DNA of 64,000 nt from Escherichia coli. Lineage in GTDB: Bacteria; Pseudomonadota; Gammaproteobacteria; Enterobacterales; Enterobacteriaceae. The notes beneath the pieces are model-generated. The model had not been told where the DNA came from. It saw only the letters and a program-made list of their open reading frames with translations, and did no database searches. Of the stretch, positions 11,066-46,377 are shown in pieces. The position numbers and the translations under genes are program-made. Where the stretch lies: assembly GCF_003790525.1 (NCBI RefSeq), contig NZ_CP033635.1. One strand, written 5' to 3'. How positions within the stretch are numbered: the first letter of the stretch is position 1; each line of letters starts with the position of its first letter.

Positions 11066-12189
11066 TGCGCCATTTACGCAATATTTTTAATCTGGGTATC
11101 AAAGAGTTGCGCAGTTTGCTCGGTGATAAAGCGATGCTGACGCTGATTGTCTTCTCGTTTACGGTGTCGGTGTATTCGTCAGCGACCGTTACGCCAGGAT
11201 CGTTGAACCTCGCGCCGATCGCCATTGCCGATATGGATCAATCGCAGTTATCGAACAGGATCGTTAACAGCTTCTATCGCCCGTGGTTTTTGCCACCGGA
11301 GATGATCACCGCCGATGAGATGGATGCCGGGCTGGACGCCGGACGCTATACCTTCGCGATAAATATTCCGCCTAATTTTCAGCGTGATGTCCTCGCCGGA
11401 CGCCAGCCAGATATTCAGGTGAACGTCGATGCCACGCGCATGAGCCAGGCATTTACCGGCAACGGGTATATCCAGAATATTATCAACGGTGAAGTGAACA
11501 GCTTTGTCGCGCGCTACCGTGATAACAGCGAACCGTTGGTATCGCTGGAAACCCGGATGCGCTTTAACCCGAACCTCGATCCCGCGTGGTTTGGCGGGGT
11601 GATGGCGATCATCAACAACATTACCATGCTGGCGATTGTGTTGACCGGATCGGCACTGATCCGCGAGCGTGAACACGGCACGGTGGAACACTTACTGGTG
11701 ATGCCGATAACGCCGTTTGAGATCATGATGGCAAAGGTCTGGTCGATGGGGCTGGTGGTGCTGGTGGTGTCGGGATTATCGCTGGTGCTGATGGTGAAAG
11801 GTGTACTGGGTGTACCGATTGAAGGCTCGATCCCGCTGTTTATGCTGGGCGTGGCGCTCAGTCTGTTTGCCACCACGTCAATCGGCATTTTTATGGGGAC
11901 GATAGCGCGTTCAATGCCGCAACTGGGGCTGCTGGTGATTCTGGTGCTGCTGCCGCTGCAAATGCTTTCCGGTGGCTCCACGCCGCGCGAAAGTATGCCG
12001 CAGATGGTGCAGGACATTATGTTGACCATGCCGACGACACACTTTGTCAGCCTCGCGCAGGCCATTCTCTACCGTGGTGCCGGATTCGAAATCGTCTGGC
12101 CGCAGTTCCTGACGCTGATGGCAATTGGCGGCGCGTTTTTTACCATTGCGCTGCTGCGATTCAGGAAGACGATTGGGACAATGGCGTAA
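11062..12189 (+). CDS. yhhJ: ABC-2 family transporter permease YhhJ
   Basis: Start taken at ATG 11062 ([18 protein letters not shown]...), overlapping the rbbA stop TGA; 375 aa, hydrophobic C-terminal half. Confidence 0.85.
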
Positions 12190-12200
12190 GGAAGGGAAAC

Positions 12201-12250
12201 TTGACTTCATATTGTGATGTCATACTATTGATGTCATAAAGTGAAGTCAT
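12201..12250 (+). promoter_or_regulatory. Putative sigma70 promoter and operator repeats of the HicA/HicB-like operon
   Basis: TTGACT (12201-12206), 16-bp spacer, TACTAT (12223-12228); inverted repeat TGACTTCA (12202-12209) / TGAAGTCA (12242-12249) and direct repeats TGATGTCATA; AAGGA SD at 12251-12255. Confidence 0.35.
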
Positions 12251-12305
12251 AAGGACATGCCATGAGAACCCTGGTACAGGCTTTACGGAAGAAACAAAAA
12301 ATACA

Positions 12306-12536
12306 TTGGATCAAATATTTAAATCTCCTGTTCCTCAAGGGATTAAGTGGTCTGATATAGAGTCACTGGTTAAAGCATTAGGCGGAGAAATTAAGGAAGG
12401 AAGAGGTTCGCGTTGTAAGTTCATACTAAATATGAGCGTTGCGTGTTTCCATCGGCCTCATCCGTCGCCAGATACCGATAAAGGCGCTGTAGAAAGCGTG
12501 CGTGACTGGTTACTAAGTATAGGGGTAAAACCATGA
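12306..12536 (+). CDS. HicA-like toxin (YcfA/HicA family); TTG start as drawn, possibly frameshifted relative to an upstream ATG at 12262
   Basis: Core IKWSDIESLVKALGGEIKEGRGSRCKF...FHRPHP...VRDWLLSIGV resembles HicA-family mRNA interferase toxins; stop overlaps the downstream antitoxin ATG (ATGA). See finding on the A6 tract. Confidence 0.55.
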   Translation: MDQIFKSPVPQGIKWSDIESLVKALGGEIKEGRGSRCKFILNMSVACFHRPHPSPDTDKGAVESVRDWLLSIGVKP

Positions 12537-12892
12537 TCAAACTGAAGACGCCAAACTCTATGGAGATTGCCGGGCAACCTGCTGTTATCACTTACGTGCC
12601 AGAACTGAATGCATTTCGTGGCAAATTCCTGGGCTTGTCAGGTTATTGTGATTTTGTCTCTGACAGCATTCAGGGGCTGCAAAAAGAAGGGGAGCTTTCC
12701 CTGCGAGAGTATCTTGAGGATTGTAAAGCTGCGGGTATTGAGCCGTATGCGCGTACAGAAAAGATTAAGACCTTTACATTACGCTATCCAGAATCGCTGA
12801 GTGAACGCCTTAATAATGCGGCTGCGCAGCAACAAGTCTCTGTAAATACTTATATTATTGAAACGCTAAATGAGCGTTTGAATCATTTATAA
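12533..12892 (+). CDS. HicB-like antitoxin with C-terminal ribbon-helix-helix DNA-binding domain
   Basis: 119-aa ORF; N-terminal HicB-like region (YxGxF...EDCKAAGIEP) and C-terminal RHH-like TLRYPESLSERLNNAAAQQQVSVNTYIIETLNERL; AGGGG SD; overlaps toxin stop. Confidence 0.65.
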   Translation: MIKLKTPNSMEIAGQPAVITYVPELNAFRGKFLGLSGYCDFVSDSIQGLQKEGELSLREYLEDCKAAGIEPYARTEKIKTFTLRYPESLSERLNNAAAQQQVSVNTYIIETLNERLNHL

Positions 12893-12941
12893 CTTATAGC
12901 GGCCCAACAATTTCTGTTGCGCCGCTATATTTTTGTGGCTC

Positions 12942-13802
12942 TTAAGATGCCTTTCTAATCAATCGATGCCCCTCATTCATCATCAGGATTTTGCTATACA
13001 CATCTTCCTCGACGGCATTTTTTGCTGATGCCATCACTCGTGCCAGATTCGCCTCGTTGTGATTATTCACATACGCTTTGCCGACGGCAGTGATAAACGC
13101 TTTGCGCAGATCGCTGGCGATATTCACTTTAGCGACGCGATAATTAACGAAACTGCGTAATATCTCCGGGGCGATACCGGAGCCGCCGTGAATAACCAGC
13201 GGCACCGGGCTGACTTCGGCAATGCGCTTCAGCAGGGGGATATCGATCCGCGGTATATCGTCCAGGCCATGAACGTTACCAATAGAAACTGCCAGCATGT
13301 CGCAACCGGTGCGTTCGACAAAGGTCTTCACCTTTTCCGGTTCCGTTTTGCAATCGGCTTCGCTGACGTGATCGTCTTCTTTGCCGAGAATCGCCCCCAG
13401 CTCCGCTTCAACCGGTACGCCATAGGATTTACAGAAATCGACAGCTTCCTGGGTGAAAGCGATATTCTCTTCAAAAGAGAATGCGGCACCGTCAATCATG
13501 ACCGAGGTAAAGCCCGCGCGCACCGCCTGTTTAACATCCTCCTGAGTTTTCCCGTGATCAAGATGAAGACTGACCGGAACATCCATTTTATCAGCGTGAC
13601 GTTTCACGATTTCATAAATGTAATCGTATCCCGACAGTTGTGCATTGGTGGGCGCAATCTGAATGAAGTTGGGTAATCCTGAACGCTCAATGGCGTTTAA
13701 AATTGAAATCGTTGTCTCCAGATTGGTGGTATTAAATGCGCCCGCTAATACCCGTTTTTCCTGAATGCGGTCGAGCAGTATCCGTCCATTAACTAATGGC
13801 AT
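12942..13802 (-). CDS. Class II ketose-bisphosphate aldolase (GatY/KbaY/FbaA family)
   Basis: 286-aa ORF with zinc-site motif SLHLDHG and GxxHG typical of class II tagatose/fructose-bisphosphate aldolases; last gene of the minus-strand PTS operon. Confidence 0.8.
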   Translation of the reverse strand: MPLVNGRILLDRIQEKRVLAGAFNTTNLETTISILNAIERSGLPNFIQIAPTNAQLSGYDYIYEIVKRHADKMDVPVSLHLDHGKTQEDVKQAVRAGFTSVMIDGAAFSFEENIAFTQEAVDFCKSYGVPVEAELGAILGKEDDHVSEADCKTEPEKVKTFVERTGCDMLAVSIGNVHGLDDIPRIDIPLLKRIAEVSPVPLVIHGGSGIAPEILRSFVNYRVAKVNIASDLRKAFITAVGKAYVNNHNEANLARVMASAKNAVEEDVYSKILMMNEGHRLIRKAS

Positions 13803-13833
13803 ATTGAAAACCTCATCTTTTAATATCAGTTAA

Positions 13834-14103
13834 TTATTCAGCTTCACCGAAGCGGTCGCGAAATAAGGTAGTGAGAGTTTGTATTGCCTCGTTTTCATCA
13901 TCACCTTCGCAGCGTATTTCCACCGTTTTTCCGCCTTTTATTCCGGCGCGCATAATATTCATCATGCTGGTGGCATTAATATCATTACCTTCATAATGCA
14001 GCGTCACTTTACAGCTATATTTTTTGGCGGCTTTCGCCAGACAGGCCGCCGGACGTGCATGCAGGCCAGTACTGTTTCTGACCTCCACGGTTTTACTCAA
14101 CAT
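13834..14103 (-). CDS. HPr-family phosphocarrier protein (operon-dedicated paralog)
   Basis: 89-aa ORF with active-site His15 context GLHARPA and HPr-like length; start overlaps the kinase stop by 11 nt. Confidence 0.8.
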   Translation of the reverse strand: MLSKTVEVRNSTGLHARPAACLAKAAKKYSCKVTLHYEGNDINATSMMNIMRAGIKGGKTVEIRCEGDDENEAIQTLTTLFRDRFGEAE

Positions 14104-15601
14104 AGTGCTCCTCCCGATGATGTAATGGCATCACGCCTTCTTGCTGTAATTTCAACTGATACCAGCTTTTCCATTTGTGCTGATAACGCTGTAATTGATG
14201 GTATCTCGCCCGATTCGGTAACAAACGTTGGGCTATGGTGACTTGCGGCGGTGGAATATCCGGTGCGGCGGTTAATAATGCTCCGACAGAAACCGCCTCG
14301 TTAAATGCAATTGCTTCAACCGGACGCTGTAAAATATCCGCCTTTAATTGCAGCCAAAGGGGATTACGGGTTGCCGGACCTATCACTTTTAACGCGCTGG
14401 TGCCGGGCACATTAAAACAGGCGAAGCAGTTGGCAAATTCCATGGTTAATCCCAGTGAGACGCTGGCAATTAACATATCGATATTTAACGTATCGCCAAG
14501 CCCATAAAATAATCCTCGGGTATGGCGATTTTTATAGGGCGAACCCGAACCGCGAAGATGCGGAATAAAAACGGGAATGTCATCGAGCGACCAGTTCCCC
14601 GCCAGGTAATCCGCATGTCCGCGAGTAAGTGATGCGGCGATCTCCTCATCGGTTAGCCGGAACGTGTTGCGCAGCCACTCCAGAGCGAAACCGCCCACCG
14701 GCAGCGACGCAAACAGGGTGAACTGGTTTGCAAGCGAATAACAGCCGTTTGCCAGCTTGTCACGTTTGGCATGTTCATCCAGCGTCGGTTGTGTATCCAG
14801 TTGCAGAATGCCTTCTGTGGTGCCCGTCGAGTTAAGGATATCGCCCGGCGTCATCTGCAACGCCCGCGCACCCACCATATGGTCATGCCCGGCCAGCGTC
14901 ACGCTGACCGGTTGCAAGAACCCAAGCGTTTTGCAGAGCGACTCGCTGACCCATCCGGCGTGCTCGCCTGGCTGCACCAATGGCGCAAATGCTGAACAGG
15001 GAACGTGTAACAACGCCGCCGCTTTCGCTGACCATTCGCCTTTACGCACGTCCAGACACAGCGTACGGCTGGCTAAGGTGATATCCGTACGCTGTTCGCC
15101 AGTCAGCCGCCAGAGCAGTACTTCCGGCGCATGTAGCCAACGCAGGCCGCGGCGATTACGCAGTGGATAATGCTCCAGCAACCAACGCATTTTGAAGGCA
15201 GAGTAATTGCTGTGCAGCGGTAGCCCGCAGATGTCATAAAGCGCCGCACTGTCTGCCTCACTAAGCGTTGCCAGGTACTCTTCACCGCGGCGGTCATACC
15301 ATGCCAGCATTGGCGTCAGGATCTCGCCATGCTCGTCAAGAAACACCCCTGACTCGCCAAAACTGGCAATGCTTATCCGCCTGACCGGCAGCGGCGAAGC
15401 GGCGCTCAGTTGCGCTATTGCCTGGCGGACCTCCTGCCAGAGGGCGTCGATATCGAAATCGACATCGCCCTGTGGGGAGATCTGTTTTGCCGTCACGAAT
15501 TTATGCGCGCCCAACGTCGTTGCATCCAGGCAGGAAAAGCAGGTGACTTTGCAATTGGTGGTGCCAATATCGATAACGATAGCTGCGCTGTTATCAGGCA
15601 T
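14093..15601 (-). CDS. FGGY-family carbohydrate kinase
   Basis: 502-aa ORF with FGGY N-terminal motif VIDIGTTNCK and two actin-like ATPase halves; overlaps the EIIC stop by 8 nt. Confidence 0.75.
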   Translation of the reverse strand: MPDNSAAIVIDIGTTNCKVTCFSCLDATTLGAHKFVTAKQISPQGDVDFDIDALWQEVRQAIAQLSAASPLPVRRISIASFGESGVFLDEHGEILTPMLAWYDRRGEEYLATLSEADSAALYDICGLPLHSNYSAFKMRWLLEHYPLRNRRGLRWLHAPEVLLWRLTGEQRTDITLASRTLCLDVRKGEWSAKAAALLHVPCSAFAPLVQPGEHAGWVSESLCKTLGFLQPVSVTLAGHDHMVGARALQMTPGDILNSTGTTEGILQLDTQPTLDEHAKRDKLANGCYSLANQFTLFASLPVGGFALEWLRNTFRLTDEEIAASLTRGHADYLAGNWSLDDIPVFIPHLRGSGSPYKNRHTRGLFYGLGDTLNIDMLIASVSLGLTMEFANCFACFNVPGTSALKVIGPATRNPLWLQLKADILQRPVEAIAFNEAVSVGALLTAAPDIPPPQVTIAQRLLPNRARYHQLQRYQHKWKSWYQLKLQQEGVMPLHHREEHYVE

Positions 15602-16952
15602 AAACCGTGCTCCGCGTCATTCGGAAAATGCCATACAGTACCAGGGCGATAACCGGCACCAGACCAATGGCGATGAGATTGCCGTTGAAGATTTCCAGCA
15701 GCCAGAAGCGGAACGGGTTACCGCCATCAAGGAAACTGGAAACCTGGCCGCTGGAGCCTTCGGCAAATTTGAAGTTAACGTCTTTCGCCATTCCGGTAAT
15801 AAACGGCGCGATTTTAGTGGCAATCCACAGGTCGGCAATAATCACCGGGATCGCCGCCAGAACGGTGCGGAAAATATTGCCACGGCTGGCTAAAGCAATC
15901 ATCGACGCCATTACCGCCAGGTTGGCAAGGTCACCAAGCGGCAGGACTTCATTACCTGGGAGGACAAACGCGATAAAGACCGAGATTGGCGTCAGCAGCA
16001 GGGCGGTGGAGATAATCGCCGGGTTACCTACGGCAACGGCGATATCCAGGCCGATATAGAGATCGTCACGGTCAGGGTATTTGGCATTGAGATACTTTTT
16101 AATGGCTTCAGACAGCGGTAATAAACCTTCCATCAGGATGCGTACCATGCGTGGCAGGATGAACATCACACCGCCAATGCTGATGCCAAGCAGCAAGACT
16201 TTTTTGAAATCGTATCCGGCAATTACGCCGAGCAGAATGCCCAGAATAGTGCCAACCATCATCGGTTCGCCGAAGATGCCAAACTTTTTCTGTACGGTTT
16301 CCGGGTCGATATGAATACGATTGAGGCCAGGGATATGGTCGATGATTTTGTCGACCAGCAGACCGACCGGGAAGAACACCACCGAAGAGAGCGTCGGCAA
16401 TGAGATCCCTTCCAGGCCAAAGTATTTTTGTACCAGTGGCGCAGACCAGTCGGCGAGTTTTAGCACCACCACTGCGGCAATCGCGGCCGCCAGCAAACCA
16501 AAGAACAGGCTGCCGGTGCTGTAATAAACCAGCGTACCGGCAAGGGCAAAATGCCAGTAGTTCCACATATCTACATCAACGGTGCGGGTTTTATTCAACG
16601 CCAGCATTGCGACATTAATCAGAATGGTCAGGGGAATAACAAACGGGGCAATTGGCGACCCCCAGGTAATGGCAGAAAGCGGCGGCCAGCCTAAATCCAC
16701 CACCGGTAAATTAATTCCGGTGCGTTCAACCATCGCCTGGGCCGCTGGCCCGACATTGCTGGTAAGAATATCGAAAATGGCATAAATACCGACAAAACCA
16801 ATGCCGACCGTTAATGACGAGCGTAAGGCTTTAGCGGGTTTTACTTTAAAACAGAGAGCAAGAATAAATAACACCAACGGCAACATTACCGTGGGGCCAA
16901 ATCCCAATATATATTGCACAATATTATAGAGGGTATGCGCGATATCGTTCAT
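15594..16952 (-). CDS. PTS galactitol-family EIIC permease
   Basis: Start taken at the internal ATG (MNDIAHTLYNIV...) preceded by AAGAGG; 452 aa, polytopic, collinear with GatC-type IIC proteins. Confidence 0.8.
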   Translation of the reverse strand: MNDIAHTLYNIVQYILGFGPTVMLPLVLFILALCFKVKPAKALRSSLTVGIGFVGIYAIFDILTSNVGPAAQAMVERTGINLPVVDLGWPPLSAITWGSPIAPFVIPLTILINVAMLALNKTRTVDVDMWNYWHFALAGTLVYYSTGSLFFGLLAAAIAAVVVLKLADWSAPLVQKYFGLEGISLPTLSSVVFFPVGLLVDKIIDHIPGLNRIHIDPETVQKKFGIFGEPMMVGTILGILLGVIAGYDFKKVLLLGISIGGVMFILPRMVRILMEGLLPLSEAIKKYLNAKYPDRDDLYIGLDIAVAVGNPAIISTALLLTPISVFIAFVLPGNEVLPLGDLANLAVMASMIALASRGNIFRTVLAAIPVIIADLWIATKIAPFITGMAKDVNFKFAEGSSGQVSSFLDGGNPFRFWLLEIFNGNLIAIGLVPVIALVLYGIFRMTRSTVYA

Positions 16953-17025
16953 AATAAACCTCTTTTTCAGGCGAGAGCGCACCTCGCGTTAGCGCCTGAT
17001 GGAGTGGGTTGGAATTAATTATTAA

Positions 17026-17307
17026 TTACTTTTTAAGAATCGAAACAATTTGCGCCAGCACTTTCTCTTCGCCAATACCGGTAATAATGGGTAAGCCGTT
17101 AACCACCGGCACGTCGAGTTCATAAGGCACTTTAGTCGTTGAAACAACCAGCGCTACGCCGTCGGTATTACCGGGTAAAGAGGCAACGTTGGTTTGGGAA
17201 TAATTGACGTTAAGGCCGTGCTCTTTGCAATACTCCATGACTTTTTCTGTTACCGCCGTGGATGTGGCAATACCTGTGGCGCAGACAAATAAAATGGTTT
17301 GACTCAT
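17026..17307 (-). CDS. PTS galactitol-family EIIB
   Basis: 93-aa ORF with N-terminal phospho-Cys context ILFVCATGIATS. Confidence 0.8.
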   Translation of the reverse strand: MSQTILFVCATGIATSTAVTEKVMEYCKEHGLNVNYSQTNVASLPGNTDGVALVVSTTKVPYELDVPVVNGLPIITGIGEEKVLAQIVSILKK

Positions 17308-17789
17308 ATTTCACCTCGTTCATTCATTTTGTTTAAGATTACTGTGTGTATTTCTGTTGTTTCCATCGTAAGCAAGGCTTGCATAAAGGGCGTATCCTGA
17401 ATCATCTCCATAATCCAGCCCAGGGCATTTAATTGTTTGTTACTTTCGCTTAAGGCGAGCAAAAAAATCACCCTGACAGGCACGGGATCAGGGTCGCCGC
17501 CCATATCGGCAAACTCTACCGGCTCTGGCAAAATACCGACGGCAATTGCATTGTGCCGGACATGTTTATGGTCCGTGTGCGGAATGGCGACGCACGGTGG
17601 TTCGGTAGGCAGCCCCGTTGGATACGTCGCCTCACGTTTCAGTACGTGATTGGCAAAATCAGGGACCACCAGCTCAGCAGCAACCAACGGTTGCGCTAAC
17701 TGACGGATGATCTGTTCAACGCTTAACCCTGCCGGAAGTCGTTGAATATAATTTTCCTGAAACTGTATGCCTTGCATTTTATTCCTCAT
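17304..17789 (-). CDS. PTS EIIA (mannitol/fructose-type EIIA-2 fold)
   Basis: 161-aa ORF with AIPH phospho-His motif; 4-nt overlap with EIIB start. Confidence 0.75.
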   Translation of the reverse strand: MRNKMQGIQFQENYIQRLPAGLSVEQIIRQLAQPLVAAELVVPDFANHVLKREATYPTGLPTEPPCVAIPHTDHKHVRHNAIAVGILPEPVEFADMGGDPDPVPVRVIFLLALSESNKQLNALGWIMEMIQDTPFMQALLTMETTEIHTVILNKMNERGEI

Positions 17790-17801
17790 AAAAAAGTGTA
17801 T

Positions 17802-18548
17802 TTAACTCACTTCCCGCCGTTGCAGCACGGTGCCCAGATAATATTTATTTCCTTTTAACCAGACGTTGCCAAACTCAACGGGTAACTCTCGGGAGAAAAA
17901 GACTAACTGCTCCAGATGCAAAACGGGTGCATCTTCACTGATATCTAAAAAATGACCGCGTTCATTACCAATTAATCGCGCGGCATAGCGACTTTCCGAG
18001 TAACGAATTTTTCTTTGCGACAAACTTTCTATTGTTGGAAATAAATTGTGTTGATTAAAATCGATTTCCACGATGCCGGGGCATAGCTCAATATTGATAC
18101 GGTTCTCTATCAGCATCGCTTTTTCATCACCAATTGAACGTAAACGCTCAAGGTAAAGAATATCCTGACCGGGCGTTATTCTTAATTTCTCTGCCACATA
18201 ACGATTAGCCGGTTCAATCCGTGACGTAATAACTTCAGTGGTAAAATGTATTTTCTGGCTTTCCAGCGATTCCGCGAATGACAATAATCCTTCACCTAAC
18301 GGATATGCCACGTTCTCTTTTTTGACAAAAGTTCCCTTCCCCTGGACCTGAATCAACACGCCTTCTTTTACCAGTTGGGCGACCGCTTTTTTAACGGTTC
18401 CCCGACTCACTTCCAGCATATCCATAATCTGGTATTCCGAAGGAATGCGATCGTCTTCCACCAGATCCCCGGTATAAATACTTTCTCTTATCCACTCCAC
18501 CACTTGTTGATAGAGCGGTATTTGTGACGACTTACTTAATGATTTCAT
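17802..18548 (-). CDS. GntR/HutC-family transcriptional regulator (HTH plus UTRA effector domain)
   Basis: Track ORF to 18557 (GTG); ATG at 18546-18548 (MKSLSKSSQIPLYQQ...) with AGGTG SD preferred. N-terminal GntR wHTH (SEYQIMDMLEVSRGTVKKAVAQL). Confidence 0.8.
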   Translation of the reverse strand: MKSLSKSSQIPLYQQVVEWIRESIYTGDLVEDDRIPSEYQIMDMLEVSRGTVKKAVAQLVKEGVLIQVQGKGTFVKKENVAYPLGEGLLSFAESLESQKIHFTTEVITSRIEPANRYVAEKLRITPGQDILYLERLRSIGDEKAMLIENRINIELCPGIVEIDFNQHNLFPTIESLSQRKIRYSESRYAARLIGNERGHFLDISEDAPVLHLEQLVFFSRELPVEFGNVWLKGNKYYLGTVLQRREVS

Positions 18549-18571
18549 GGCGCGCACCTGAACATTTACAG

Positions 18572-18585
18572 TTGTCTATGGACAA
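18572..18585 (-). promoter_or_regulatory. Putative GntR-family operator upstream of the PTS regulator
   Basis: Palindrome TTGTCTATGGACAA matching the GntR/HutC consensus, followed by a direct repeat GACAA; lies just upstream of the regulator start. Confidence 0.4.
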
Positions 18586-18746
18586 TCATGGACAACTTCA
18601 AGCGTATAGTAGGTGAACGGGAGAAAAAGAGGATCGAAGCGTCTCACATTTTGAGGGACCAAATCGTGATCAAAAAAATGTGACGTGAGTCGATATTTGG
18701 CAGGAATTTACTGCGCCGTCAGGAAATAACGGCGCGTGGGTAGGTG

Positions 18747-21550
<2,804 letters not shown>

Positions 21551-21554
<4 letters not shown>

Positions 21555-22495
21555 GCGTGGGCTCCTTCATGACGACGAATACGTGGGTCCAGCGCGGCGT
21601 TGAGCAAATCGACAATCAAATTACAGACCACAAAAACCACCACCATCATCAGCGTAAAGCACTGGATCACCGGATAGTCACGGTTGAAAATCGCCGACAC
21701 CGCATAGCGCCCGACGCCCGGCCAGGCAAAGATGTTTTCGATAATCATCGTCCCGCCAATCAGTTCGCCAATGTGCATCCCCACGGCGGTGATCATCGGC
21801 AGCGAGGCATTGCGCAGGATGTGGCGGCGTTCGGTCTGTTTGTCGTTCAGGCCGCGCAGTCGCGCCCAGGTCACATGACGCTGACCGGCGACGTCCAGCA
21901 TACTGGCGCGCAGCAGACGCGCGTTAATCGCCAGCGACATAAAAGCGATGGAAACCGCAGGCAAAATGATGTGCTGCCAGCCGCCGTAACCCATCGCGGG
22001 CAGCCATTGCAGATACACTGAAAATGCCATCACCAGTAAAAACGCCAACCAGAAGTTAGGCATCGACACGCCAAGAAACGCGATAAAACGCACGGCGAAA
22101 TCCGGCAGGCGGTCGCGATGGCGCGCCGCCCAGATGCCGAGCGGCACGGAAGTGAGCAGAATTAATACCAGCGCCGCACCCGCCAGCTCCAGCGTGGCGG
22201 GCAGGAAGGTCAGCATATCGTCCAGCACCGGGCGTTGGCTGGCGAATGAGATACCAAAGTCAAGATGCAGCGCTTTCCACAACCAGGTTCCGTACTGCAC
22301 GTACAACGGCTGATCCAGCCCCAGCATGGTGCGGGTAGAAGCCAGCATTTCCGGCGTCGGCGGCAGGTTAGACAGACGCAGATAATCGAGCGCCGGGTCG
22401 CCGGTGCCGAGGCGCAGCATCAGAAAAATGATCACCGAGGCGGCGAGCACCATCGGGATCAGCAGCAGAAAGCGGCGTAATACATAACGCAACAT
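21551..22495 (-). CDS. nikB: Nickel ABC transporter permease NikB
   Basis: 314-aa polytopic permease. Confidence 0.9.
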
Positions 22496-24069
22496 TAAGG
22501 TTTCACCGGTTTAATCTGTTCGAACGGGATTTCGGTGGCGATCGGCGCGTAGGGGATGTTACCCAGTTCCGGTTTTGAAACCACCATCATTGAGATATAG
22601 CTGATGGGCAGATAAACCGCCTCGTTATGCAGACGGGTCAGAATGTCGCGATACAGTGCCTGACGTTGTGTTTCGTCGTGTGTCGCCAGCACTTCGCCAA
22701 TCTCTTTATCAATCAGTGGCTTGTCGGCTAAACCTTGCTGTGCCTGGAAGTCAGCGTGCGACGGTACGCGCATTGAACTCAGGAAGGCGTGTGGATCGTA
22801 TGGCGCGCCCCAGGTACGGTGGAAAATCATGCCAAAACGACCGTCGCGCTGACGAGCATAGATACTGCTCTCTTCTTCGCCGATCAGCGTGACATCCGCG
22901 CCAATCTGGCGCATATCAGCCTGAATGATTTCGGCCATTGATTTGCTTAACGCATCGGTGCCGATGAACGACAGTTCAATGCGCAGCGGCTGACCATTTT
23001 TCTCGCGGATGTCTTTGCCTGCGGGCAGCGTCCAGCCTGCTTGTTCCAGCAACGCTTTCGCTTTCTGCGGATCGTACTGGCGCGGTTTCAGGCCGAGATT
23101 GGCATAGGGCACGGAAGGGGCAAACAGGGTGTCGGCGACCTGCTGGGTGCCATACAACGCGTTATCGATCAGCGATTTTTTGTTTACCGCGTAATTGAGA
23201 GCTTCACGTACGGCCAGCTCGTTGGTGGGGGCTTTGGCAGTATTGAGCGCCAGCATCACGGTTTCGATCGGCTGTGACAGTTGGGTGTGGTAAGCCGAGT
23301 TCTGGCTAAAGCGGGCGAAGGTATCGAGCGGTAATAGCCCTTCATTACCGTATAGTAGATCGATATCGCCGGTTTCAAACGCTACTGCGCGGGTAGTCGG
23401 GTCTGGGATGACGTTAAAAGTGATCTTCTTAATCGCCGGCTTTTCGCCCCAGTAGTTTTCGTTACGGACGAAGACATCGTACTGATTCAGTTTCGATTCC
23501 TGCAAAACCCACGGCCCGGTGCCAATCGGCGCTTTAATCCCATTCATGGTTTCATGGTTTTTAAACTGCGAGGGGGCGATAAAGCGGAAAGGGCGCGGCA
23601 GGGCCAGTTCTTGCAGGAAAGGATAGTAGGCGCTTTTCAGGGTGATTTGCAGCTCGTTTTTGCTGAGTGCTTTGACATCAACAATCTGGTTTGCCAGCTC
23701 CAGCCAGGCGTGACGTTGACGGTTGTCGAGCACAGCGCGGAAGTTTTCTGCCGCGGCCTCTGCATCAAACGGTTCACCGTTAGAGAATTTCACATCATCA
23801 CGCAGGGTGAAGGTCCAGGTTTTGCCATCTTCTGAATGGGTCCAGCTTTTTGCCAGCCACGGGATCACCGAACCGTCTGCCTGATATTTCACCAGTGGTT
23901 CATAAACCATGCTCTGGGCGAACATTTGGTTAGGCGTGTAAAGGTGCGGGTTTAGTGGCCCGACATTCACCGGCCAGGCGGTGGTGATTTCATCTGGTGC
24001 AGCGGCATGGACGATAAAAGACGCACAAGCCAGCAGCGCAAATAGAGTGCGGCGGAGTGTAGAGAACAT
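22495..24069 (-). CDS. nikA: Periplasmic nickel-binding protein NikA
   Basis: 524-aa ORF with signal peptide, solute-binding-protein family 5 fold. Confidence 0.9.
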
Positions 24070-29199: not shown

Positions 29200-29508
29200 A
29201 TGGATTATTTAATTCCAGTTTGTCTGGCATTGCTGGGATTGCTCGCGATCTTCACCCCCAATTGGCTGATCCCTGTTTTTATCGTCGTGGGGGGATGGCT
29301 GGGGGTACTTGCCTGGGGTTGGCTCTGGCTAATGATTTTTTTACCTTTACTTAACGGTGTCGGGCTTGCTTATGCCCTGTGGTTGATGTTCAAAAGGCCA
29401 TCCATAGCATCCCGCCTGGTTGCTGCATGCTGTGTTATCTCCGTCATTCTGATGTTAGCGCTTTATTATGCTTTCCTGACTATGCCGCCGTTCCCGCCTC
29501 AGCACTAA
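29200..29508 (+). CDS. Hypothetical small membrane protein (3 predicted TM helices, Trp-rich)
   Basis: 102-aa ORF between the REP cluster and the zntA 3' end; strongly hydrophobic; no clear SD; may be spurious. Confidence 0.3.
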   Translation: MDYLIPVCLALLGLLAIFTPNWLIPVFIVVGGWLGVLAWGWLWLMIFLPLLNGVGLAYALWLMFKRPSIASRLVAACCVISVILMLALYYAFLTMPPFPPQH

Positions 29509-45630: not shown

Positions 45631-46377
45631 ATGCATTATGCCGTTGTTGTCATGCTTGAACTGCTTTGCTGTATTCACGCTTACCGTACCGGACAAGAGC
45701 GGTACTGGATTTTTATCATTTTCTGTTTTCCGGTGATTGGCTGCGTGGCGTATTTCGTCATAGTGATGTTGCCTGAAACGGGCGCTGACCGTCACGGGCA
45801 TACTTTGCTGATGCGCCTGCAGGACAAACTCAACCCTGAGCGCCACCTGCGCAAATTAACCGAAGAACTGGCGATTGCCGAGACGAATCAAAACCATTAT
45901 GCGTTGGCTAATGAACTGGTGTGTCTGGGGCGTTATCACGAAGCTGTTCCCCATTATCAGCAGGCGTTAAGCGGGATATTCGTCCATGAAGCGGCAATGA
46001 TGCTAAGCCTGGCGCAGGCGCAGTTTGCCATTCAGGAGTTCGCCGCCTGTCAGCAGACGCTGGAAGATGTGATGCGTTATAACCCCGATTTTCAGTCGGC
46101 AGACGGGCATTTGTTATTTGCCAGAGCGTTAGCCGCACAAGAAAAATACGCTGATGCGGAAAGCGAGTTTGAGGTGTTGATTTCTTATTACTCCGGCCCG
46201 CAGGCGCGTATTTACTATGCGGAAATGTTGGCGAAAATGAGTCGGTTACGTGAAGCCAACGAGCAGTATATTGCTGTGGTTGATACGGCTAAACGTTCAA
46301 AACCACATTATAGAAAACACCACCGGGAATGGATTAAGACCGCCAATGAACGGCTGAAGCAGAGTGTGGTGCAATGA
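45631..46377 (+). CDS. Hypothetical membrane-anchored protein: N-terminal PLDc_N-like two-helix domain plus C-terminal TPR-like helical domain
   Basis: 248-aa ORF; N-terminus VVVMLELLCCIHAYRTGQERYWIFIIFCFPVIGCVAYFVIV resembles the PLD-nuclease N-terminal membrane domain; remainder predicted helical-repeat. Own terminators downstream. Confidence 0.55.
   Translation: MHYAVVVMLELLCCIHAYRTGQERYWIFIIFCFPVIGCVAYFVIVMLPETGADRHGHTLLMRLQDKLNPERHLRKLTEELAIAETNQNHYALANELVCLGRYHEAVPHYQQALSGIFVHEAAMMLSLAQAQFAIQEFAACQQTLEDVMRYNPDFQSADGHLLFARALAAQEKYADAESEFEVLISYYSGPQARIYYAEMLAKMSRLREANEQYIAVVDTAKRSKPHYRKHHREWIKTANERLKQSVVQ

Follow-up and report, generated by a model that had tools for sequence, protein, structure and literature searches.

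A polymorphic locus between yhhJ and nikR

The 64,000-nucleotide stretch of Escherichia coli DNA analysed here (the window) carries, at positions 12190–18746, a segment of nine genes, eight of them intact and one, hicA, a pseudogene. The segment lies between the convergent genes yhhJ, which ends at 12189, and nikR (18747–19148, minus strand), and consists of two modules, a hicAB toxin–antitoxin pair (12190–12941) and a seven-gene sugar operon (12942–18746). The locus is polymorphic in E. coli, and the window holds a common, already annotated haplotype that was first sequenced with O157:H7. We give a probability of about 75% to a combined reading in which the operon was the ancestral occupant of the site, hicAB came later, the rhsB state of K-12 is derived, and the operon would serve a sugar pathway whose outline can be proposed from the families of its proteins. 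A preliminary description of this DNA, made from its letters, had the nine genes and their bounds right; the gene list agrees with the RefSeq annotation of near-identical genomes, where all the genes are already named at family level, and NCBIfam confirms the families of what had been described as a minus-strand, GntR-regulated operon combining a phosphotransferase system (PTS), a kinase and an aldolase.

The interval was compared across 5426 complete E. coli genomes by means of a whole-segment search and of probes spanning the junctions. Whole-segment matches fell into three groups: those restricted to the initial 714 bp (hicAB), those limited to the operon and beginning at about 12960, and those that include both. 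The junction probes distinguished four haplotypes: (i) rhsB, as in K-12 (nikR–rhsB probe, 2098 genomes); (ii) hicAB only (hicB–nikR probe, 1491 genomes), to which O104:H4 belongs by its match pattern; (iii) operon only, as in the type strain DSM 30083 and in ATCC 25922 (probe joining yhhJ, a repetitive extragenic palindromic (REP) element and the aldolase gene, 1056 genomes); (iv) hicAB plus operon, the arrangement of the window, as in O157:H7 EDL933 and O145:H28 (hicB–aldolase probe, 581 genomes). The four junction counts total 5226 of the 5426 genomes, about 200 genomes fitting no probe, and they agree with the whole-segment counts. The haplotype of the window, at about 11% of complete genomes, is the least common of the four. 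Taking both operon-bearing haplotypes together, about 1600 of the 5426 genomes (about 30%) have the operon, O157:H7, the E. coli type strain and ATCC 25922 among them. The whole-segment search found no copy on E. coli plasmids. The segment had been described as a single accessory island, a view that these counts contradict, as the two modules segregate: each is found without the other in more genomes than carry both.

The homology of hicAB-only genomes to the window stops at 12903 and that of operon-only genomes begins at 12956–12964. A hairpin with a 15-bp stem (12895–12929, 93% complementary) is found between the convergent hicB and aldolase genes; it forms the junction of the two modules and is likely to be a bidirectional terminator. 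At the outer edges, homology between haplotypes breaks at the yhhJ stop codon and at the nikR stop codon, the latter codon being TAA where the operon is present, whereas K-12 and the hicAB-only genomes have TGA. A second hairpin (GCGCCGT...ACGGCGC; 18713–18735, minus strand), which lies directly 3' of the nikR stop and belongs to the operon-bearing haplotype, is the presumed nikR terminator.

Compared to the O157:H7 locus, the window displays the same gene order (yhhJ / hicA hicB / aldolase HPr kinase IIC IIB IIA GntR / nikR). Nucleotide identity with the O157:H7 genomes sampled is 96.6%, EDL933 being matched only by the 301-bp junction probe, at 97.0%. The two loci differ in that hicA is intact in O157:H7 (91 residues) and frameshifted in the window, and in that the operon alleles of the window are closer to those of B2 strains. 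Strain CS5L, otherwise 100% identical to the window over the segment, carries an IS1 between hicB and the aldolase gene, with hicB shortened by one codon; this insertion is the only mobile-element event near the locus, and the window is free of it. Note that an apparent fifth haplotype, in which a "hexulose-6-phosphate synthase" stands beside hicB in HH97, was rejected: this is a hicAB-only locus in which the calls of hicA, hicB and nikR are frameshifted or atypical, so that the variant looks like an assembly artefact.

The operon as the likely ancestral occupant of the site

The kinase of the operon was used to scan one genome per prokaryotic species. In both Escherichia whittamii and Citrobacter amalonaticus, all seven genes occupy the nikR–yhhJ interval (nikDE–nikR / operon / yhhJ–rbbA); the operon directly follows nikR in the cryptic-clade Escherichia sp. 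MOD1-EC7003, where yhhJ has been lost, and a fragment from Escherichia albertii contains the kinase and HPr genes. Third-codon identity between the window and C. amalonaticus is 41–63% for the operon genes and 54–62% for five flanking genes (rbbA, yhhJ, nikR, nikE and nikD); the corresponding values for E. whittamii are 81–90% and 83–89%. This parity of synonymous divergence argues that the operon has resided here about as long as the flanking genes have. Thus, the operon is most likely the ancestral occupant of the site, inherited with the flanking genes since before the split between Escherichia and C. amalonaticus. A recent acquisition is difficult to reconcile with its presence in sister taxa at a third-codon identity comparable to that of the flanks.

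These data bear directly on the alternative that a single horizontally acquired island replaced rhsB at a hotspot and was held there by HicAB acting as an addiction module. The segment is indeed absent from K-12 and patchy in E. coli, and its GC content, for which the preliminary description had called for a comparison, is lower than that of its surroundings (48.8% for the segment and 49.6% for the operon, against 53.2% and 56.5% for the two flanks). Besides, in Enterobacter, Pantoea, Cedecea, Rahnella, Phytobacter, Izhakiella and Trabulsiella the operon has other, unrelated surroundings, and must therefore have moved on long timescales. Such an island is nonetheless highly improbable, given that hicAB and the operon segregate independently and that E. 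whittamii and C. amalonaticus carry the operon at the same site. The usual signs of mobility are also missing: there is no open reading frame (ORF) for an integrase, insertion sequence (IS) or transposase in the segment, as had been noted before, no tRNA gene was found in a scan of positions 8000–23000, and searches for flanking direct repeats or att sites returned only short repeats at chance level. Likewise, no remnant of an Rhs core, tip or H-repeat was detected in the window by blastn with the variable region of K-12 or by tblastn with RhsB, matches other than those to the flanking genes being again short and at chance level. The outcome at the junctions fits the absence of recent mobility that had been proposed. 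A scan of 11000–20000 against Rfam gave no family at E ≤ 0.1.

The same results bear on two further claims. The segment had been regarded as a replacement at a variable site: the allele-replacement pattern and the lack of mobility genes support the idea of a replacement but not its direction, the operon being likely older and rhsB later. The proposal that the toxin–antitoxin pair stabilises an island finds no support, since hicA is broken here and repeatedly elsewhere while hicB is kept, and since the operon persists without hicAB in all the operon-only genomes. The pair is better described as an unrelated, often decaying passenger beside the operon.

Three observations count against an ancestral operon joined later by hicAB. 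First, both the GC content and the GC at third codon positions of the segment are below those of the flanks, which leaves room for an ancient foreign origin; the lower GC content of the operon may go back to an origin of this kind, much older than the events discussed here. Second, C. amalonaticus could have gained the whole nik–operon–yhhJ block by transfer rather than by descent. Third, the 119-nt hicB–nikR spacer of the hicAB-only locus (positions 12705–12823 of the extracted sequence) is in large part unmatched: its first 11 nt or so correspond to the shared hicB-proximal tail, and the remaining 110 nt or so, in a spacer that contains a hairpin with a perfect 13-bp stem (AACTGAACTTAAT...ATTAAGTTCAGTT), are dissimilar to the other haplotypes and to the sister-species loci compared. 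A spacer without a match elsewhere implies that the hicAB-only state is not a simple deletion.

Proposed order of events and the rhsB state of K-12

The interval between nikR and yhhJ corresponds to rhs locus 9 in Jackson et al. 2009 (PMC2935791). In K-12 MG1655, it contains rhsB, yhhH, yrhC and yhhI, in line with the preliminary description, which placed rhsB and H-repeat genes there, and all nine genes of the window's segment are absent from it. Thus, the site and the two bounding genes are the same in K-12 and in the window, whereas the content is entirely different.

The 3' end of the aldolase gene, the last of the operon, provides a marker of the order in which these states arose. The aldolase of the window has 286 residues and ends in ...LIRKAS, an R(K/Q)AS-type C-terminus common to C. 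amalonaticus and five other genera. In operon-only E. coli, E. whittamii and MOD1-EC7003, the aldolase has 283 residues and ends in ...L(G/M/V)K, with a REP element directly 3' of the gene. The REP-containing sequence that follows yhhJ is common to the operon-only haplotype and to K-12, where it is cut by the H-repeat element. Finally, hicAB and the operon are also found together in the genome of a separate Escherichia species, E1V33.

These features suggest the following course. The ancestral arrangement would have been nikR / operon / terminator / yhhJ, as in Citrobacter. In one lineage, hicAB would have been gained in the space separating this terminator from the stop codon of yhhJ, giving the haplotype shared by the window and E1V33; in another, the 3' end of the aldolase gene would have been replaced by the REP element, and the operon would later have been displaced by rhsB in a REP-bearing chromosome. 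The rhsB/H-repeat state of K-12 is therefore probably a derived replacement of the operon-only, REP-bearing haplotype, and this rhsB state probably spread via homologous recombination in the flanking core genes. The view centred on K-12 is corrected accordingly: what looks like an island in the window would be the older state, and rhsB in K-12 the insertion.

Recombination at the locus is apparent from allele comparisons with a B2 strain. The aldolase, HPr, IIB, IIA and gntR genes of the window are 98.5–99.4% identical to their counterparts in this strain, the kinase gene 96.7% and the EIIC gene 97.9%, as against 94.7–95.8% for the nik genes, a contrast indicating that recombination has shuffled alleles here. 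One may ask, then, whether the haplotype of the window arose as a recombinant of the hicAB-only and operon-only haplotypes, and not from hicAB inserting beside the ancestral operon. The B2-like operon alleles beside less B2-like nik genes would agree with such an origin, as would the fact that the nikR stop codon and the bases 3' of it vary by haplotype. We nevertheless consider it very unlikely: the aldolase of the window keeps the ancestral 286-residue C-terminus followed by the simple hairpin, so that the operon-only E. coli haplotype, with its REP-disrupted 283-residue form, cannot have donated this end, and the presence of both modules in E1V33 further favors insertion of hicAB beside an operon already in place.

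The hicAB module and its decaying toxin gene

At 275 nt, the toxin gene hicA (12262–12536, plus strand) is one nucleotide short of the intact form (276 nt). Aligned with the O157:H7 allele, which is intact, it shows a 1-bp deletion that turns an A7 tract into A6 at 12296–12301 and shifts the frame at codon 13; the same allele in CS5L is flagged as a frameshifted pseudogene by the Prokaryotic Genome Annotation Pipeline (PGAP). The antitoxin gene hicB (12533–12892, plus strand) is intact, codes for 119 residues, is annotated as a HicB family antitoxin in RefSeq genomes, and overlaps with its start codon the stop codon of hicA in the sequence ATGA (12533–12536). The earlier recognition of a HicA/HicB-like pair holds as regards the families, both of which are matched, but not as regards the toxin gene, which is no longer intact.

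The intact HicA of O157:H7 matches the Pfam family HicA_toxin (PF07927, E=3.7e-9) over residues 30–80, with no NCBIfam match and no sequence similarity detected to HicA proteins of known structure; the HicA of this locus bears an N-terminal extension of about 29 residues. In every allele examined here, what we take to be the position of the canonical GSH motif, with its catalytic histidine, reads GSRCKF (residues ~50–56, located by eye). HicB matches PF05534 (E=3.5e-15) and shows weak matches to Arc/CopG ribbon-helix-helix proteins at residues 76–116; its comparison with solved structures gave only noise. The module resembles type II HicAB systems such as hicAB of E. coli K-12 in having a HicA_toxin gene 5' of an overlapping gene for a HicB with a C-terminal ribbon-helix-helix, and a palindromic promoter region ahead of the genes; it differs from them in its N-terminal extension and in the loss of the toxin ORF in the window.

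This promoter region comprises a promoter-like sequence, TTGACT-16-TACTAT (12201–12228, plus strand), which overlaps an imperfect palindrome made of TGATGTCATA-type repeats (12202–12222 and 12229–12249, plus strand), an inverted repeat lying over the hicAB promoter. As such an overlap of promoter and palindrome is usual for antitoxin autoregulation, the palindrome (12202–12249) is the presumed HicB operator. Within it, some lineages possess the 14-nt unit TGATGTCATACTAT (12215–12228), whereas others, among them Escherichia sp. E1V33, lack it; the presumed operator would thus exist in two- and three-repeat forms.

Decay of hicA is not confined to the window. Among 13 alleles surveyed, 12 of them from E. 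coli, four carry independent lesions. The window and CS5L have the -1 frameshift in the A7 tract, O166:H15 JNE070796 has a -2 deletion next to this tract, and the nonsense lesions Q26* and R2* occur in EC200461 and 13C1079T, respectively. The R2* allele belongs to a class with 94.6% identity that, judged by identical match parameters, comprises about 789 genomes. By contrast with the toxin gene, hicB is intact in all 13 alleles, and in eight of the 12 from E. coli its product is one and the same protein, WP_000593555.1. The window would therefore have retained an orphan, predictably autoregulated HicB after the frameshift in hicA.

It could be argued that hicA is still functional, the longest ORF left in it encoding a 76-residue protein from an internal TTG codon at 12306, and that the pair is a live toxin–antitoxin or defence module. 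The Pfam HicA domain falls 3' of the frameshift, and the frame after the lesion is open and encodes a protein identical there to that of intact alleles. The downstream frame is also open in the class of about 789 genomes with a stop at codon 2, in which PGAP annotates a 76-residue HicA. We still regard a functional toxin as unlikely: no obvious Shine-Dalgarno sequence precedes the TTG at 12306, the shortened protein would lack the conserved N-terminal KKQKNTL stretch, the exact allele of the window is a pseudogene according to PGAP, and the recurrence of independent frameshift and nonsense lesions suggests relaxed or negative selection on the toxin.

Proteins encoded by the operon

The families of the seven operon proteins were assigned by searches against NCBIfam and PDB, and the phosphorelay residues and zinc motifs were read from the translations. 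All the genes are on the minus strand. The first, gntR (17802–18548), encodes a 248-residue GntR-family regulator of the HutC subfamily, with full-length NCBIfam matches to PhnF, HutC and TreR-type models. It is followed by the genes for three PTS enzyme II (EII) components: (i) a 157-residue EIIA of the GatA/FruA type (17304–17777; NF007236, 57 bits for a cutoff of 139; TIGR00848, 49.6 bits), with its histidine in AIPHTD; (ii) a 93-residue GatB-like EIIB (17026–17307; NF007643, 60 bits for a cutoff of 95), with Cys9 in FVC9ATG; (iii) a 452-residue EIIC of the galactitol (Gat) family (15594–16952; TIGR00827 EIIC-GAT, E=7.5e-143, 476 bits for a cutoff of 542). All three score under the cutoffs of the galactitol models; they thus belong, by their sequences, to the Gat family without being galactitol equivalogs.

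The next gene (14093–15601) encodes a 502-residue carbohydrate kinase of the FGGY family. Its best NCBIfam matches, XylB (146 bits for a cutoff of 380), GlpK and FucK, are all far under their cutoffs, and its nearest PDB relatives, glycerol and xylulose kinases, are matched weakly (E~1e-24). By these comparisons, the kinase fits no characterised subfamily. An operon-specific HPr-like phosphocarrier of 89 residues (13834–14103; TIGR01003, 103.5 bits for a cutoff of 47.9) has both His15 (GLH15ARP) and Ser46. The last gene (12942–13802) encodes the class II (zinc) ketose-bisphosphate aldolase (NF005943, 556 bits for a cutoff of 364; TIGR00167, 220.7 for 215.6), in which the histidine motifs providing the zinc ligands, HLDHG, GNVHG and HGGSG, are found at residues 80, 175 and 205, and whose closest solved relative is the tagatose-bisphosphate aldolase AgaY (1GVF, E=3.6e-48). 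None of the seven genes encodes a GatD-type dehydrogenase, a GatZ, an isomerase or a glycosidase.

Conservation is uneven across the Enterobacterales genera sampled. Amino-acid identity is 89–96% for EIIC and 85–95% for EIIB, and EIIC, EIIB, GntR and usually the aldolase are 84–96% identical across genera; the values are 62–80% for the kinase, 59–75% for EIIA and 44–84% for HPr. Recent mosaic transfer was considered as the cause and rejected: third codon positions are equally saturated in all the genes, which implies that the disparity (about 90% for EIIC versus about 63% for the kinase) results from selective constraint. The gene order at the 3' end also varies among genera, being kinase–HPr–aldolase, kinase–aldolase–HPr, or with the aldolase gene beside gntR.

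Proposed pathway and candidate substrates

Taken together, the protein families suggest a system that probably takes up a galactitol-like ketose, adds phosphate to it in two steps and then splits it. In the cell, the HutC-type GntR repressor would occupy a conserved palindrome over the promoter, and CRP would activate transcription. In the presence of the cognate sugar, the dedicated HPr would hand phosphate to the histidine of EIIA and then to the cysteine of EIIB, and the GatC-like EIIC would import and phosphorylate the ketose. The FGGY kinase would then phosphorylate the sugar again, at its opposite end, and the zinc aldolase would split the resulting ketose bisphosphate into triose phosphates. 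A direct import–phosphorylation–cleavage route is suggested by the fact that the operon encodes no dehydrogenase, isomerase or glycosidase; both the substrate class and the order of the enzymatic steps are deductions from family membership. Rhamnulose and fuculose kinases, which are members of the FGGY family, phosphorylate C1, beside the keto group.

We tentatively suggest, as an idea that has appreciably less than an even chance, that the operon specifies an undescribed carbohydrate pathway, in which the FGGY kinase acts on the ketose phosphate generated by the PTS and the substrate is a gut or plant sugar so far assigned to no E. coli pathway. Such a pathway would occur in about 30% of E. 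coli, among them O157:H7 and B2 strains such as ATCC 25922, and would be conserved in Enterobacterales. Two points tell against the proposed sequence of steps. To our knowledge, FGGY kinases act on free sugars and not on sugar phosphates, and we know of no precedent for the second phosphorylation step; moreover, full-text literature searches aimed at the operon returned no paper on its function.

Could the operon be a second galactitol or D-tagatose system, akin to gatYZABCD or to tagKTH–gatYZ of Klebsiella? It shares with gatYZABCD of E. coli K-12 the Gat-family EIIA, EIIB and EIIC and a class II ketose-bisphosphate aldolase; the EIIC is GatC-like (476 bits) and the aldolase is nearest to the tagatose-bisphosphate aldolases AgaY and GatY. 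However, the operon lacks GatD and GatZ, possesses an FGGY kinase and an HPr of its own, and encodes a GntR/HutC regulator in place of the DeoR-type GatR. The lack of a GatD-type dehydrogenase and of GatZ excludes galactitol as the direct substrate, and the sub-cutoff scores of EIIA, EIIB and EIIC point the same way. As to the tagatose system, its kinase, TagK, belongs to the PfkB family and its EII, TagT, to the fructose family, whereas the window operon has an FGGY kinase and a Gat-family EII.

According to PMC9720028, tagKTH–gatYZ of Klebsiella oxytoca and Salmonella follows the same PTS–kinase–aldolase logic, from a ketose monophosphate to a 1,6-bisphosphate and then to a class II aldolase, and it includes, like the window operon, an HPr-like component, TagH. 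But the same source states that E. coli was considered unable to grow on D-tagatose, and reports that growth of Nissle 1917 on tagatose is abolished by deletion of an unrelated ABC-type cluster (PMC9720028). Nissle is a B2 strain, and the operon is present in two other B2 strains, both reference strains. D-tagatose is thus a doubtful substrate, and we judge a second galactitol or D-tagatose system decidedly unlikely.

Two described loci were also compared with the operon and rejected: the vpe carbohydrate-permease locus (Martinez-Jehanne 2012), which lies in a different region, together with deoK, and the D-tagatose cluster of Nissle 1917, an unrelated ABC-transporter cluster according to PMC9720028. 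In Enterobacter cancerogenus (positions 3863–4945 of the extracted sequence), where the operon is of the variant with the aldolase gene after gntR, a divergent gene upstream encodes a UxuA-like (mannonate dehydratase-like) protein, as read from its N-terminus; the same variant of the operon is found in a Pantoea sp. The UxuA-like neighbour might hint at a hexuronate-related substrate, or be a coincidence. For a locus of modest practical value, the scientific interest that remains lies in the substrate of an operon conserved so widely and in its unusual kinase reaction.

Predicted regulation of the operon

The genes are tightly packed, with overlaps of 4 nt between the IIA and IIB genes, 8 nt between the IIC and kinase genes and 11 nt between the kinase and HPr genes, and a gap of 24 nt between gntR and the EIIA gene. 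The overlaps suggest translational coupling; together with the short gntR–EIIA gap, they indicate that the seven genes would form a single transcript, predicted to be activated by CRP and repressed by GntR. The putative GntR/HutC operator is the 26-bp sequence GTTGTCCATGATTGTCCATAGACAAC (18571–18596, minus strand), which contains the palindrome TTGTCCATAGACAA (18572–18585) and an upstream half-site, and falls between a -10-like sequence, TACTATAC (18604–18611, minus strand), and the start codon of gntR. This operator sequence hardly varies among the regions 5' of gntR in 11 loci, those of the window and of 10 others from other species and genera, consistent with GntR binding at this position. 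Two CRP-like sites are predicted on the minus strand, TGTGAGACGCTTCGAT (18633–18648) and a degenerate distal site (18678–18693). In other genera, the latter comes near to the consensus TGTGA-N6-TCACA, and CRP may act through both sites (18633–18693).

Other features of the window

Two intact genes for DUF4049 paralogues, one yhiL-like and the other yhiJ-like by the CS5L annotation, are found on the plus strand at ~3427–5016 and ~5278–6900. yhiL is a pseudogene in K-12, and the first DUF4049 copy is frameshifted in 13C1079T. The DUF4049 genes are missing from MOD1-EC7003, as is the yhiI–rbbA–yhhJ efflux-like cluster: in this genome (positions 11650–14600 of the extracted sequence), yhiM, yhiN and pitA come straight after the aldolase gene and its REP element.

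Finally, two ORFs lie at some distance from the locus. A 102-residue hydrophobic ORF (29200–29508, plus strand), annotated as "hypothetical protein" in CS5L, is located between tusA and zntA, an interval that we take to be without a gene in K-12. Between livF and ugpB, a gene at 45631–46377 (plus strand) encodes a 248-residue tetratricopeptide-repeat protein according to the CS5L annotation, and could represent a further small accessory insertion with respect to K-12.

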